DNA of 64,000 nt from positions 758,610 to 822,609 of the forward strand of contig JAQTNH010000001.1 in assembly GCA_028713895.1 (NCBI GenBank), written 5' to 3'. This document shows, in pieces, positions 2,950 to 54,022 of this stretch (position 1 is the stretch's first letter; each line of letters opens with the position of its first letter). This DNA comes from Candidatus Nanoarchaeia archaeon. Its GTDB lineage: Archaea; Nanobdellota; Nanobdellia; CSSed11-243R1. The notes below the pieces were generated by a model, which saw nothing but the letters and a program-made list of their open reading frames with translations, did no database searches and was not told where the DNA came from. A program made the position numbers and the translations under genes.

Positions 2950-3243
2950 TCATACCCTCTTTTTTATCATCCTTTTTTGTATGCGTGATTCAGGCTTTCC
3001 AACCAGCAGATTCCCGTCCACAATGACTGTCCTGCTGTCCGGAAGTTTTAGCATGATTTTTGTGTTTTCCTTTGCTACTCTTTTTTCTCCAGCTTCGGTT
3101 TTTATTGTCAGCATGTTTCGCGTTTCATCAATAACAGTTCCCTTGATGCCGGCTTCACTTTTGTTTCGGGACTCAACAACTTCCGCTTCAAGCCCGATAA
3201 GCTCGTGCTTTGTTATGTTTGAAGGTTTTTGCATTGGCATCAT
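2950..3243 (-). CDS. rnp1: RNase P protein component 1 (Rpp29/Pop4 family)
   Basis: 97-aa ORF ...[36 protein letters not shown]...; family-like motif and conserved archaeal position between S17 and SUI1/L29. Confidence 0.8.
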
Positions 3244-9075: not shown

Positions 9076-10585
9076 TTATCCTTTGACAACGCCAATGGGC
9101 TTCAGCCTTGCGACAAGGTTTCCGATTCCTGCTTCGTGCGAGACTCTTGCAACCTCGTCAATGTCCTTGTAAGCACCAGGAGCCTCCTCTACGATTCCCA
9201 TCTTTGATGCCGCCTTTATTATAATTCCGCGGTCTCCGAGCTCCTTGACTATTGTGTCTGCGCGATAGCTTCGGATTGCTTCTCCGCGGCTCATCATTCT
9301 TCCTGCGCCATGAGCAGTGCTTCCGAATGTTTTTTCCATTGCAGTTTCGCTGCCAACAAGAACATATGATGCTGTTCCCATGCTGCCCGGAATAAGAACC
9401 GGCTGCCCGACTGAACGATAGTCGCTTGGAATCTCTGGCCTGCCTGGACCAAATGAACGGGTTGCGCCCTTTCGGTGCACGTAAACCTTTCGGAGTTTGC
9501 CATCAATCTTGTGCTCCTCAACTTTTGCAAGATTGTGCGCAACATCATAGACAACCTGCATATCCAGGTCTTCCCAGCTTTTTCCAAGGGCTTCTTCAAA
9601 TGCCTGTCGTGACCAGTGAAGAATCATCTGGCGGTTGCACCATGCAAAGTTTGCTGCTGCGCTCATTGCCTTGAGATACCTTTCGGCTATGTCGCTGCCT
9701 GCTGGCGCATAAATTAATTCGCGGTCAGGAAGTTTTGCAATTATATCTGGATAAGCTTTTTCCATCTCGCGTATGTAATCGCTGCAGACCTGATGCCCGA
9801 TTCCCCTACTGCCTGTGTGAATCATCAGTGTGACCTGGCCTTCCTCAAGCCCGAATGCTTTTGCAACTTTTTTGTCAAAGATTTTTTCAACATACTGGAT
9901 TTCAAGAAAATGATTGCCTGAGCCAAGGCTTCCAAGTTGCGGCATTCCGCGCTTCTTTGCCTCTGGGCTCACATATTTTGGGTCAGCGACTTTTATGCAG
10001 CCCTCTTCCTCAAGGTGCTTCAAATCCTGTTCAGTGCCAAATCCGTGTTCAACTGCCCATCGCGCTCCAAGCTTCAGGACATTGTCGAACTCTTCCTGAG
10101 TCTGCACCTTTGTTTTTCCCTTGCTTCCTAATCCGCTTGGAACATTGCGGAAAAGAGCTTCAAGAAGCGGATGTATATTTTCTTCTGCCTGCTTTTTGAC
10201 AAGGTTAGTTCTAACTAGTCTCACACCGCAGTTTATATCATCTTAGGGGACATAGTTTTCCTATAATCCAATCCTATGCCGCCGGGTGAGATACCCCCTT
10301 CCTTGAAATCCAAAGCTGCAACGCCGCCAATTGGGAACCCGTCTAAGGTCCGATTTTCATTGGAAATCCTTCGTGCCCATCTGGCAGGGTTATTGCGTAC
10401 TTATAGATTCCAGGCAAAGTGGCTACTCCAGCGCATTGAGTTAAGGTCCGGTCCTGTTTCATCTTTTCCAGAAGATTCTGGGAAGCAAAGACGCGTCCGG
10501 GAACGTTCATGTTCGGAATTGTTCCGACAGGAATTTCCCACTCAGTGTCGTTGATTTTATTCAGTGTTACATTGCTGGCATTCAT
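9076..10585 (-). CDS. rtcB: RNA-splicing ligase RtcB; coding sequence interrupted by two BHB-type mini-introns (exons 10585..10366, 10342..10271, 10241..9076; spliced product 485 aa)
   Basis: ORF track gives two fragments in different frames (10343..10585 ending ...LPDGHEGFPMKIGP*; 9076..10224 starting inside ...GVRLVRTNL). Removing 23 nt and 29 nt joins them in frame and recreates [14 protein letters not shown] and [15 protein letters not shown]. The C-terminal part has RtcB-like GSRGIGHQ, VAHN, HRKGATR, GSMGTASY and HGAGR blocks. Confidence 0.85.
10242..10270 (-). other. BHB mini-intron 2 of rtcB (29 nt, phase 1, inside a Tyr codon U|AU)
   Basis: mRNA sense: GGCA-UAGG-AU|U-GGAU(U)AUAG-GAAAA-CUAU-GUCC-CCUA-AG|A-UGAU. 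4-bp central helix UAGG/CCUA, identical bulges AUU and AGA, inner stem-loop closed by GAAAA. Confidence 0.8.
10343..10365 (-). other. BHB mini-intron 1 of rtcB (23 nt, phase 1, inside a Tyr codon U|AC)
   Basis: mRNA sense: CACG-AAGG-AU|U-UCC-AAUGAAAAUC-GGA-CCUU-AG|A-CGGG. 4-bp central helix AAGG/CCUU flanked by 3-nt bulges AUU and AGA, inner helix UCC/GGA, outer helix CG/CG; contains the in-frame TAG that ends the 80-aa ORF. Confidence 0.8.
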
Positions 10586-11717
10586 TTAAGCTCCAAATAA
10601 TTTCATTGCCTTTTCTTTGTCGTCTAACATAATCTAATTTTTCTAATCCTTTTATTCTTTTCCCTCTTTTGGTATAACCTGATAAATGGTAAGTTATGAG
10701 CTTTGGAGTTATATCCAACTTTTTTGCCAATTCCTTTGTCGAATGTTGTCCGTTGCCCAATTCTTTCAATATTTGATTTTTAGTTACCCCTTTAGGTCTG
10801 TGATTCCAATTACGTTCTTTTATACTTAAATAAAACTCCAAATCTGCGCTCTTTTTGTTATTGGTAAAACCTATATTTTCTTTGAAATATTTAAACGCGA
10901 AAGGTGATATCCCAAAAGAGTGTTCAATTCTTTGGTCCCTGCTTCTTGTATAAGTCGAACTCAATTTTATTTTTGGATGGTGAAGCTCAATAAGTTTCTT
11001 TAAATCGTTTAACAGTTTAAAGTTAGCAGAATAAGTACGAATTCCAGAATGTCCGATACTTCCTTCATCATCTATAAATGCCCTAATTGCGAGAGTTGAA
11101 AATTTTTTAGGCAACTCAAACAGTCTTTTTGGCAACCTTCCATTAAATGTTCCAAATTTTAGTTTGTATAACTTGGATATTGTATAACAGATACATTTAG
11201 GGAAAATTATTGAAGTTGGCGTTTTTGTAATTTCAACATCTCCAAAACATCGTTTGATATAATAAGCAAATTCATCTAATTGTTTTTCATTGTAGCTTCT
11301 GTAATAATTTGTATTATTCGGGAGTCCTGAGCCATCACATAATATATGTGTTATTAAACCAAAAAGTTCAGGAGTTTCTTTGAGAGGAAGAACTGGACTA
11401 TTAAATTTGTTGCCTGCACCGATTGTTTTGTATGAAACAATATTCTTTTCCAGTCCATTAATTTTAATCTTGTAATACCTTGTTAATGTTAAGACGTTTA
11501 ACAAAGGGATATACTGTTTTCCTTTTCTCCATGGGCCCATTGATTTGCCCCTATCGCAAGTTCCGGTTAGCCATCTGGATACTGTACTGGGGCTTTTGTT
11601 TGTCAGAGAACATACCAATCTTTTGTTACACAGAATTTTATTTCTGAGCTTCTTGTTTAATAGAACACAAATCTTTGATTGCGGGAATTCAGAAATATGA
11701 AATGATTTTATGCTCAT
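10557..11717 (-). CDS. free-standing LAGLIDADG-family homing-endonuclease-like protein with N-terminal HTH and C-terminal winged-helix regions
   Basis: 386-aa ORF with two dodecapeptide motifs (LFGLITHILCDGSG and LAIRAFIDDEGSIG), HTH-like SPSTVSRWLTG and wHTH-like STKELAKKLDITPKLITYHL; its 3' end overlaps the rtcB start by 29 nt. Confidence 0.75.
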   Translation of the reverse strand: MSIKSFHISEFPQSKICVLLNKKLRNKILCNKRLVCSLTNKSPSTVSRWLTGTCDRGKSMGPWRKGKQYIPLLNVLTLTRYYKIKINGLEKNIVSYKTIGAGNKFNSPVLPLKETPELFGLITHILCDGSGLPNNTNYYRSYNEKQLDEFAYYIKRCFGDVEITKTPTSIIFPKCICYTISKLYKLKFGTFNGRLPKRLFELPKKFSTLAIRAFIDDEGSIGHSGIRTYSANFKLLNDLKKLIELHHPKIKLSSTYTRSRDQRIEHSFGISPFAFKYFKENIGFTNNKKSADLEFYLSIKERNWNHRPKGVTKNQILKELGNGQHSTKELAKKLDITPKLITYHLSGYTKRGKRIKGLEKLDYVRRQRKGNEIIWSLNECQQCNTE

Positions 11718-11786: not shown

Positions 11787-12014
11787 TTACTTCATTTTTT
11801 TCAGAGTTTCAGACACAAAATCCACAAGCTCAAGCGGAACAGTGACTGCCTTGTTGTAGCGAGGCTCGCCGTCCGGGGTTGTGAAGCCTTTTGCGATTGT
11901 TATGAACTCGTTTCCGGTTTCAGCATCCTTTGTGCGCTTTACCTCGATAAAGTTCCTGCTACCTGTCTGGTTCTTTCGCTCTGCTTTGAGTGTCTGCCAT
12001 CTTTCGTCTGCCAT
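11787..12014 (-). CDS. small hypothetical protein, possibly PC4/YdbC-like ssDNA-binding fold
   Basis: 75-aa ORF; pattern ...ITIAKGFTTPDGEPRYNKAVTVPLEL... resembles the PC4 C-terminal domain as I recall it; weak. Confidence 0.35.
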   Translation of the reverse strand: MADERWQTLKAERKNQTGSRNFIEVKRTKDAETGNEFITIAKGFTTPDGEPRYNKAVTVPLELVDFVSETLKKMK

Positions 12015-12027
12015 AATGATTACCCCT

Positions 12028-12468
12028 TTAAATGTCTATCAGAACTTTTACCCTATATTTGCCTTTCTTTTCCTCGATTTCCATGAAATGGTAAGTGACT
12101 GCTTTTACAGCTTTTCCTTCAGTATGTTTGTCAGGATTGAACTCCTCACCTGAGGCTGTTGCTGTAAGGGTCCATTTGTTGTTTTTATGCTCGATTTTGT
12201 CAACTTTTATGTTATGAAAAATCATTGATTCAGCGTCCTGGAAATAAATGAACTTGTTAAGAAACTCGAAAAGCAATGACTGTTTGTCTTCTGCCTCGAT
12301 TTTGATTGCCTTTTTTATTGAAGATTTGACATTGTCAGAAGTTACTATGAATTTGCCCAAGCCGATTGCAGCGTTCTGGAAAGCCTCTTCAAGAGTTTTC
12401 CCGTATGACTCTATGTAAAAGTCAGCTGTGTGTTCGCGGAACTTGAATCGCTTTTCTTTGTCAGGCAT
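12028..12468 (-). CDS. archease (RtcB activator family)
   Basis: 146-aa ORF ...FKFREHTADFYIESYGKTLEEAFQNAAIGL...AVTYHFMEI...; archease-like N-terminal HTAD motif and size. Confidence 0.8.
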   Translation of the reverse strand: MPDKEKRFKFREHTADFYIESYGKTLEEAFQNAAIGLGKFIVTSDNVKSSIKKAIKIEAEDKQSLLFEFLNKFIYFQDAESMIFHNIKVDKIEHKNNKWTLTATASGEEFNPDKHTEGKAVKAVTYHFMEIEEKKGKYRVKVLIDI

Positions 12469-50489: not shown

Positions 50490-50523
50490 TGGACTAGGAG
50501 GGATTCGAACCCTCAGCCTCCCA
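50490..50523 (-). other. orphan tRNA 3'-half-like sequence (positions ~40-73 of a second Ala-type tRNA)
   Basis: TGGG-AGGCT-GAGGG-TTCGAAT-CCCTC-CTAGTCC-A, 9 nt downstream of tRNA-Ala. Shares GGGAGGCT with tRNA-Ala, but the T stem and acceptor strand differ by compensatory changes; retains U70; no matching 5' half (GG[G/A]CTAG) seen in this window. Confidence 0.5.
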
Positions 50524-50532
50524 ATATATAAA

Positions 50533-50654
50533 TGGACCCGCCGGGATTCGAACCCGGAGCCTCCCGCATTTTGGTATCTAACGCCCTCCGCAAAATTTTC
50601 TTTTTTGCAAAAGAAATGTTTTAAGCGGACGCGATGCCGTTTCGCCACGGGCCC
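50533..50654 (-). tRNA. tRNA-Ala(GGC) with two BHB introns (33/34 and 37/38) separated by a 4-nt micro-exon
   Basis: Hand-folded. Exons 50654..50623, 50585..50582 (GGCG), 50568..50533 (72 nt); introns 50622..50586 (37 nt; central CCGC/GCGG, bulges UU|A and AG|G) and 50581..50569 (13 nt; central UUGG/CCAA, bulges CG|U and AA|U). Mature GGGCCCG-TG-GCGA-AACGGCA-TCGC-G-TCCGC-TTGGCGT-GCGGG-AGGCT-CCGGG-TTCGAAT-CCCGG-CGGGTCC-A with the Ala identity pair G3.U70. 72+50=122 nt matches the span. Confidence 0.85.
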
Positions 50655-53893: not shown

Positions 53894-53897
53894 AAAG

Positions 53898-54022
53898 TGG
53901 CCCCGGAGGGATTTGAACCCTCGACCCACTGATTAAGAGTATCAACCGCGCCTTTCTTCCGCAAACGCTTCTTTGGAAAGAAGGGCTTTGTCAGTTGCTC
54001 TGCCAGGCTGAGCTACGAGGCC
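53898..54022 (-). tRNA. tRNA-Lys(CUU) with one 51-nt BHB intron at non-canonical position 30/31
   Basis: Exons 54022..53992 and 53940..53898 (74 nt); intron 53991..53941. Central helix CAAC/GUUG, bulges UG|A and AU|A, outer helix GAG/CUC. Mature GGCCTCG-TA-GCTC-AGCCTGGCA-GAGC-A-ACTGA-CTCTTAA-TCAGT-GGGTC-GAGGG-TTCAAAT-CCCTC-CGGGGCC-A. 74+51=125 nt matches the span. Confidence 0.85.

Follow-up and report, generated by a model that had tools for sequence, protein, structure and literature searches.

How does an archaeon obtain the RNA ligase RtcB if the gene for this enzyme is broken into two open reading frames (ORFs)? The question is raised by the rtcB locus in a stretch of 64,000 nucleotides (nt) from a Candidatus Nanoarchaeia archaeon (assembly GCA_028713895.1, contig JAQTNH010000001.1, positions 758,610 to 822,609), which we call the window and in which all coordinates below are given unless a locus is named. 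Here an RtcB homologue appears as an ORF of 80 amino acids (aa; 10343..10585, minus strand, ending ...LPDGHEGFPMKIGP*) and a second one of 382 aa in another frame (9076..10224, minus strand). An original prediction, made from the DNA letters alone, had described these two ORFs and had proposed that two bulge-helix-bulge (BHB) mini-introns of the kind known from archaeal tRNAs interrupt the gene. Following it up, we consider it likely, with a probability of about 0.88, that the two inserts are real archaeal BHB introns in the rtcB pre-mRNA, which would be removed by the splicing endonuclease EndA and whose flanking exons would be joined by RtcB.

The mRNA-strand sequence across the gap that the prediction had quoted is exact against the window, and removal of the proposed segments of 23 and 29 nt indeed leaves 220 + 72 + 1166 = 1458 nt in a single frame of 485 codons plus stop, with both Tyr codons regenerated. 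Translated, this frame gives 485 aa that match RtcB from Pyrococcus horikoshii with no gap at either junction (PDB 1uc2 and 7lfq; E ~7e-195), which bears out the assigned identity. Each insert causes a frameshift, and intron 1, read in the frame of exon 1, terminates in a stop codon. The conserved block that flanks both regenerated Tyr codons is what we take to be the Asp/Cys block of the RtcB active site. The parts of the gene and the two motifs, as read from the sequence, are as follows.

10366..10585, minus strand: rtcB exon 1, 220 nt, Met1 to base 1 of Tyr74 (ORF and translation; aligns to residues 3-71 of P. horikoshii RtcB)
10343..10365, minus strand: intron 1, 23 nt, UUCCAAUGAAAAUCGGACCUUAG, phase 1 within a Tyr codon (excision restores the frame and the Tyr codon)
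10271..10342, minus strand: rtcB exon 2, 72 nt, bases 2-3 of Tyr74 to base 1 of Tyr98
10242..10270, minus strand: intron 2, 29 nt, UGGAUUAUAGGAAAACUAUGUCCCCUAAG, phase 1 within a Tyr codon (excision restores the frame and the Tyr codon)
9076..10241, minus strand: rtcB exon 3, 1166 nt including the stop codon (Pfam RtcB recorded on the called 382-aa product)
10340..10373, minus strand: motif 1, with outer helix C10373-G10372 / C10341-G10340, central helix 10371..10368 AAGG / 10348..10345 CCUU, bulges 10367..10365 AU|U and 10344..10342 AG|A, and inner helix 10364..10362 UCC / 10351..10349 GGA
10239..10278, minus strand: motif 2, with outer helix C10278-A10277 / U10240-G10239, central helix 10276..10273 UAGG / 10247..10244 CCUA, bulges 10272..10270 AU|U and 10243..10241 AG|A, and an inner stem that starts at 10269 and ends at 10248

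Sequence reading and folding agree with the helices and bulges that had been described for both segments. The motif of intron 1 is the minimum-free-energy fold of a 46-nt stretch, and that of intron 2, whose inner stem is GGA..AUAG/CUAU..UCC with the loop GAAAA, is the minimum-free-energy fold when the flanking exons are included with 12 nt on the upstream and 10 nt on the downstream side. A cut after bulge nucleotide 2 at each motif gives exactly the junctions needed for the frame, both Tyr codons and the gapless RtcB alignment. As a permissive version of the motif (2+4+2 base pairs, bp, with G-U allowed) matches only a fraction of ~4e-4 when all positions and lengths in the window are combined, chance does not explain why two motifs coincide with the very junctions that restore the frame and regenerate Tyr (~1.6e-7).

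In the mechanism we propose, the last four exon bases before AU (AAGG and UAGG, from the Glu/Ile-Gly codons) would pair with the 3' end of the intron (CCUU and CCUA) to a central helix of 4 bp, flanked by two 3-nt bulges, a hairpin inside the intron and a short helix between the exons. EndA would cut after the second nucleotide of each bulge, and RtcB with archease, its cofactor, would ligate the 2',3'-cyclic-phosphate and 5'-OH ends and thereby recreate the two Tyr codons. Cleavage, ligation and the role of RtcB as exclusive ligase are what we infer for the rtcB mRNA from its sequence. The 485-aa enzyme would then be encoded by the doubly spliced mRNA only, and because this mRNA is needed, the synthesis of RtcB would depend on RtcB that is already present. 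Such pre-existing enzyme would be passed on at cell division, hence the self-dependence would be no paradox, and it is already implicit wherever essential tRNAs bear introns. The prediction had spoken of a self-referential loop, autocatalytic or homeostatic: the dependence does follow logically from the gene structure, but the two adjectives go too far, as the dependence is positive and close relatives are intronless.

Introns at two sites of rtcB in related archaea

The spliced protein, searched against GTDB genomes and JGI metagenomes, led to 160 related loci (these and all further loci are numbered with L below). The 80-aa ORF of exon 1, compared with a protein collection, gave about 14 short N-terminal RtcB fragments, many of them on long contigs, that end right after DGHEG or GGIG. 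Ten loci were retrieved from nine of these fragments, and L163 was added via a cluster look-up. Besides the window, 15 sequence-distinct rtcB genes bear an intron, 12 of them at exactly the positions found in the window and three at a position 2 nt downstream of site 1. The strict site-1 intron (GGAU|...|AYGG, 23-57 nt) is present in nine distinct sequences, namely the window and L163, which count as one, and L100, L164, L167, L169, L170, L171, L173 and L174, and the relaxed one 2 nt downstream in L044, L144 and L101. Exact site-2 introns (AUAGGAU|U...CCCUAAR|AUGA, 27-37 nt) are likewise nine in number (window, L005, L164, L166 and L170-L174), and six sequences possess both. These loci come from JGI, ENA, NCBI and SRA-run (Logan) assemblies and from many samples. 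The putative introns form two families, recurring at two Gly-Tyr sites in at least 16 distinct genes of the DPANN archaea (Nanoarchaeia and relatives). In L170 the rtcB gene shifts frame once more near 3201, around residue 205 in GSGNHF, presumably the metal-binding motif of RtcB; this may be a third interruption or an assembly error in the SRA-run contig.

The intron interiors are unrelated in sequence. We built two intron alignments, one per site, anchored at the exon-defined junctions, with nine homologues each. In them 88-89% of the cells are paired (central helix 94-100%, inner helix 94-96%), and at each site five of the six inner-helix pairs show changes on both sides. None of 500 shuffles reached the observed covariation score, and controls with slid partners gave at most 0.17 against the observed 0.38 and 0.52. 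Direct evidence comes from site 1, where a synonymous exon codon (GAA/GAG) covaries with the U/C of the intron, which shows that the exon-intron pairing is under selection. In local minimum-free-energy folds the central helix, a 3-nt bulge and the inner helix are found in 16 of 18 cases (9/9 at site 2 and 7/9 at site 1), the exceptions being the site-1 contexts of the window and L164; in L173 and L174 the central helix has 3 bp. Thus it is structure rather than sequence that is conserved among these introns.

The alignment with relatives, which had been suggested as a check, found the insertions conserved in some of them and absent in others, with compensatory changes in the BHB motifs. The rtcB genes of the nearest relatives (94, 88, 82-84 and 79% protein identity) are uninterrupted. 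L163, a JGI contig, has 92% DNA identity to the window over 458 nt and carries an identical 23-nt intron 1, but it has no intron 2 and reads GGCATAGGAT|ATGATATAAAC, the 29 nt missing exactly at the predicted cuts and with no ambiguity in the alignment. The exon codons ATA GGA TAT, which form the central helix at site 2, occur in 9/9 alleles with intron 2 and in 2/92 intronless ones, these two being L163 (1715..1746) and L007. As L163 has kept codons that are rare among intronless alleles, the comparison suggests a precise and recent loss of intron 2 in this lineage. On a rough neighbour-joining tree of RtcB, intronless sisters stand beside intron-bearing lineages, and two sister lineages have their putative introns at different sites. 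This patchy distribution implies many gains, many losses or both.

Could the gene simply be broken, or the inserts be errors? If rtcB were a decaying pseudogene, a second intact copy or another ligase elsewhere in the genome would have to do the work. One might think so because the NCBI record of an identical contig (JAQTPB010000009.1) has no protein called for either rtcB fragment, and because the 64 kb inspected, in which there is no second rtcB, are only part of the genome. On the other hand, dN/dS (the ratio of non-synonymous to synonymous substitution rates) is 0.05 in pairwise comparison with the closest intronless relatives, and 49 synonymous stand against three non-synonymous changes on the branch leading to the window. 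Furthermore, the two inserts, bounded exactly by the splice motifs, are the sole lesions, and they have been retained in many lineages, where compensatory changes accompany them; this makes decay a very improbable explanation. Assembly or sequencing errors, or a translational bypass by ribosomal hopping or frameshifting instead of splicing, are favoured by nothing more than the bare disruption of the frame, and we regard them as practically negligible. A 1.7-kb stretch is identical in assemblies from two sequencing runs (SRR22315508 and SRR22315509) and a 3.2-kb stretch in a Candidatus Nanoarchaeia metagenome-assembled genome at NCBI (GCA_028713185.1, the contig just named, L176), so that both inserts are present identically in three independent assemblies, quite apart from the same-site introns in assemblies of other origin. 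Hopping would be unable to regenerate the split Tyr codons, and no selection for exon-intron covariation would be expected under it. The interrupted copy is therefore under purifying selection and neither an artefact nor a decaying pseudogene. Two other kinds of element were rejected as well: an intein, as the inserts have 23 and 29 nt, shift the frame and in the case of intron 1 end in a stop codon, and a group I or II ribozyme intron, whose core alone has hundreds of nt and for which the rtcB intron region gave no Rfam match.

Several observations weigh against splicing by EndA and RtcB as proposed here. The exact spliced 485-aa RtcB was not found in a collection of 15 billion proteins, and no EndA was recognised among the few ORFs of the window that were scanned, no systematic EndA search having been made. 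In another, 54-nt context a rival hairpin beats the motif of intron 2. The outer helix between the exons has just 2 bp at each site of the window and is 59-67% paired across the homologues; being this weak, it places the motif near the relaxed form that needs an endonuclease of broad specificity. Finally, a supply of RtcB by RtcB alone presupposes that no second rtcB and no other ligase for 3'-phosphate and 5'-OH ends exists elsewhere in the genome. As to the form of the motif, many of the homologous introns are closer to relaxed than to strict BHB in their outer helix, although the inner helix is present and covaries. DPANN EndA with an L3 loop tends to occur where more tRNA genes are disrupted, and loop inserts of this kind have been linked to the recognition of relaxed motifs (PMC5829648).

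Genes upstream of rtcB and the origin of the introns

Why should such introns exist in this gene at all? The genes upstream of rtcB give a hint. In intronless relatives no gene separates archease from rtcB, the two being direct neighbours (synteny in L003, L004 and L085-L089), whereas in the window they are parted by an insertion of ~1.4 kb that holds two ORFs and is not present in these relatives.

10557..11717, minus strand: 386-aa ORF between archease and rtcB, overlapping the start of rtcB by 29 nt
11787..12014, minus strand: 75-aa ORF in the same ~1.4-kb insertion (gene calls on the identical contigs L001, L002 and L175; without family match on record)
12028..12468, minus strand: archease gene (Pfam Archease recorded on the called gene)

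Direct Pfam and PDB sequence searches with the 386-aa ORF gave a winged-helix match only (Pfam HTH_5, a C-terminal winged helix of the ArsR type), and the link to LAGLIDADG proteins runs via intermediate homologues: PF14528 LAGLIDADG_3 is present in its distant homologues P0027 (33% identical, E 2e-39) and P0028, and two LAGLIDADG-like motifs (...ILCDGSG... and ...FIDDEGS...) can be seen by eye. By our reading it would encode a divergent LAGLIDADG-type protein with a winged helix, which is probably tied to the history of the introns. Homologues with 57% identity lie immediately upstream of the intron-split rtcB in L170 and L171, while in L163, L167/168 and L169 the corresponding position is taken by LAGLIDADG_3 genes that are unrelated to it, the one in L169 lying on the opposite strand, so that at least three unrelated LAGLIDADG-type subfamilies (window/L170/L171, L163/L167/168 and L169) are found upstream of split rtcB genes. 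A Pfam scan of 181 upstream ORFs detected LAGLIDADG_3 in four ORFs of the set with the L163, L167/168 and L169 loci and in at most two of the other set. Taken together, a LAGLIDADG-type gene is located directly upstream in six of 11 intron-bearing loci with enough flanking sequence and in at most three of ~120 intronless ones (Fisher's exact test, p ~6e-6, with lineages that are not independent samples). It is not upstream in five intron-bearing loci (L100, L044, L144, L164 and L166), and L010 possesses the upstream gene and no intron. The putative rtcB introns are often gained and lost and tend to accompany an upstream gene resembling a homing endonuclease of the LAGLIDADG type.

Two further observations concern these genes. 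In L167/L168 (1449..2452) the upstream LAGLIDADG_3 gene lies in two frames of 79 and 255 aa, compared to a single ORF of 323 aa in L163, which may point to a frameshift, to decay or to a further small interruption. In rtcB of Micrarchaeota RBG_16_49_10 (L058 2208..5155, and L141) an intein with LAGLIDADG motifs is inserted at DIN|C, after a masked run of N, and in L058 it lies 11 nt downstream of intron site 2.

From the patchiness, the precise polymorphism and the association with endonuclease genes, we regard the introns as insertions into an invariant stretch of an essential gene, tolerated and probably mobile, rather than as a designed regulator. A tentative explanation, to which we give rather less than even odds, is that they are kept and spread together with the free-standing LAGLIDADG homing endonuclease gene upstream by collaborative homing. 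The endonuclease would cut the conserved intronless rtcB, repair from the invaded allele would copy the endonuclease gene together with the intron or introns, and the intron would shield its carrier by splitting the recognition site. In favour of homing speak the enrichment described above with its at least three unrelated subfamilies, the empty interval between archease and rtcB in intronless relatives, the intronless sisters on the RtcB tree and the fact that rtcB is a known target of inteins, the one in L058 being so close to site 2; the concept as such has been described (PMC3984707). Against it stand the five loci without the upstream gene and L010 without an intron, and the upstream ORFs of the window and L163 are unrelated although these close relatives have intron 1 in common. 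Moreover, the lineages are not independent, and the intron interiors are too short and too diverged for tracing a transfer. Going one step further, the mini-introns might represent the RNA component of a mobile element in two parts, of a kind not described for this type of intron. Its endonuclease gene would insert itself between archease and rtcB, and the endonuclease would be directed at the DNA of the invariant Gly-Tyr active-site region in intronless rtcB. The intron, ORF-less and protein-spliced, would interrupt this target, make its carrier immune and be copied by co-conversion along with the endonuclease gene. This is more doubtful still and on balance unlikely.

If instead the introns had evolved as an autoregulatory device, the output of RtcB would be tuned by the cleavage and ligation capacity of the cell. 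Such a role would fit with the dependence that follows from the gene structure itself, with the same two sites of the same gene being hit repeatedly in many lineages, and with the absence of any other frame-restoring intron among ~60 genes of the window. However, the closest relatives, with 79-94% identical RtcB, are intronless and one close relative has intron 1 only, which means that the introns are dispensable. A positive feedback does not stabilise a level, and recurrence at conserved sites is equally expected of selfish elements. We therefore consider autoregulation improbable, well behind spread by homing.

With two sites, at least 16 distinct examples and a polymorphism of presence and absence, gain and loss of the predicted introns become directly testable, and through the link to LAGLIDADG genes a way in which introns could move in archaea can be put to the test. 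The locus would be a natural case of a gene that needs its own product for its expression and bears on the question of how such introns spread. There is also a practical side, as gene callers split or drop such rtcB genes and surveys of DPANN genomes would count this essential enzyme of tRNA splicing among the missing genes or the pseudogenes. If the two-part element were true, it would be the first collaborative-homing system using BHB introns, and it would explain why the ligase gene is a recurrent intron host across DPANN, the self-dependent gene being a side effect.

Comparison with known introns and mobile elements

The prediction had presented introns in rtcB as undescribed, and in agreement with this we found no report of them in the full-text literature searched, which has most subscription journals outside its coverage. 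It had also named cbf5 as an example of the very few coding genes with BHB introns. In the same literature cbf5 stands alone in this respect, as papers from 2018, 2020 and 2025 cite it as the sole coding-region case together with one case from the 5' untranslated region (UTR) in Haloferax. As far as this literature goes, rtcB would be the second coding-gene family with tRNA-type introns and would belong to a different superphylum; unusual are the ligase's own gene as host, the two sites per gene, the wide occurrence in DPANN and a possible partnership with an endonuclease.

The pre-mRNA intron of cbf5 in Crenarchaeota (Watanabe 2002; Yokobori 2009, PMC2738675) is the closest parallel. In both cases a BHB intron lies in the coding region of a gene for RNA processing, is removed by the tRNA splicing machinery (predicted for rtcB) and has been gained or lost among related lineages. 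In contrast to cbf5, the rtcB introns reside in the gene of the ligase itself and in the DPANN superphylum, there are two of them per gene, they are much shorter (23-57 nt), and they lie inside codons of the most conserved active-site block, often with a LAGLIDADG-type gene upstream. In the Haloferax gene HVO_1309 the intron is located in the 5' UTR and the mRNA is cleaved by EndA at a BHB motif (PMC7714728); there an untranslated leader is interrupted, whereas in rtcB codons are.

The rtcB introns also resemble the non-canonical introns of archaeal tRNAs, which have the same motif and cut geometry and are short, ORF-less and patchily distributed. For such tRNA introns transposition has been proposed within the Thermoproteales. 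Unlike a tRNA, the host is an mRNA in the case of rtcB, so splicing must restore the frame and competes with translation.

Inteins are another kind of insertion in the same protein, PH1602 of P. horikoshii being an RtcB with an intein. What they have in common with the rtcB introns is their place in this conserved part of the active site, a selfish nature and the involvement of LAGLIDADG endonucleases, both putative for the introns, and a removal that yields the intact enzyme, but they are in frame and spliced at the protein level, while the inserts of the window shift the frame and have no coding capacity. That rtcB is a host of inteins is recorded in an intein survey (PMC4760082). A likeness to collaborative homing in phages, where ORF-less group I introns go with free-standing endonucleases (psbA with F-CphI; PMC3984707, PMC6083498), lies in the ORF-less intron in a conserved gene and in an endonuclease gene placed beside this gene and not inside the intron. 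In rtcB, however, the intron would be protein-spliced and not self-splicing, the host is cellular, and a cut by the endonuclease at the intron insertion site is a prediction.

In the unconventional splicing of HAC1/XBP1 the nuclease is IRE1. As predicted for rtcB, exons of an mRNA are joined there in dependence on RtcB after a non-spliceosomal cleavage, which changes the frame, and participation of RtcB in the splicing of XBP-1 mRNA has been reported (PMC8718801). These systems differ in their nuclease and motif, they are regulatory and stress-induced, and their target is not the ligase's own mRNA.

tRNA introns and further motifs in the window

According to the prediction, eight tRNA introns in the window are cut after bulge nucleotide 2 like those of rtcB. 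This number could not be reproduced, as ARAGORN and Rfam identified four tRNA genes, two of them with inserts of ~50 nt. The cut position does hold for tRNA-Lys(CUU), which we decoded by hand.

53897..54022, minus strand: tRNA-Lys(CUU), interrupted in the anticodon stem by an intron of 51 nt at position 30/31, which is non-canonical (ARAGORN intron search)

Its intron has a strict motif with outer helix GAG/CUC, central helix CAAC/GUUG and bulges UG|A and AU|A, and the cuts after the second bulge nucleotide give the same geometry as in rtcB. The intron-bearing tRNA genes imply that the host has a splicing endonuclease. A tRNA gene at 50490..50654 (minus strand) has ~50 extra nt and probably more than one intron; the ARAGORN call as Phe(AAA) is doubtful, and the tRNA at 50533..50654, with its several interruptions, gave no clean decoding when candidate motifs were excised and ARAGORN was run again. 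Right after this gene there is an orphan second T-arm with an acceptor 3' strand (GGGAGGCTGAGGGTTCGAATCCCTCCTAGTCCA). As no matching 5' half was found in the window, the piece may belong to a tRNA that is split or permuted. The 386-aa ORF upstream of rtcB is unrelated to a 448-aa ORF that adjoins a tRNA of the window.

A search for BHB motifs in coding sequences had been proposed for the whole genome. It was carried out for the window, where no frame-restoring intron other than the two in rtcB was found among the ~60 genes. A generic motif scan of the window with merging of ORFs was uninformative: it gave 204 candidates and missed rtcB itself, as exon 2 is short. When AU|N and AR|A bulges were required, 20 matches were obtained against 14.8 in shuffles, and only the two in rtcB restore a coding frame. 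Pfam searches with ten further ORFs of the window revealed no additional split gene and no EndA. One BHB-like motif consisting of Watson-Crick pairs throughout (CAA GGUG AU|U ... CACC AG|A UUG, 97 nt) lies in the ORF for ribosomal protein L4 (7007..7103, minus strand), and it is probably due to chance, since the removal of 97 nt would break the frame.

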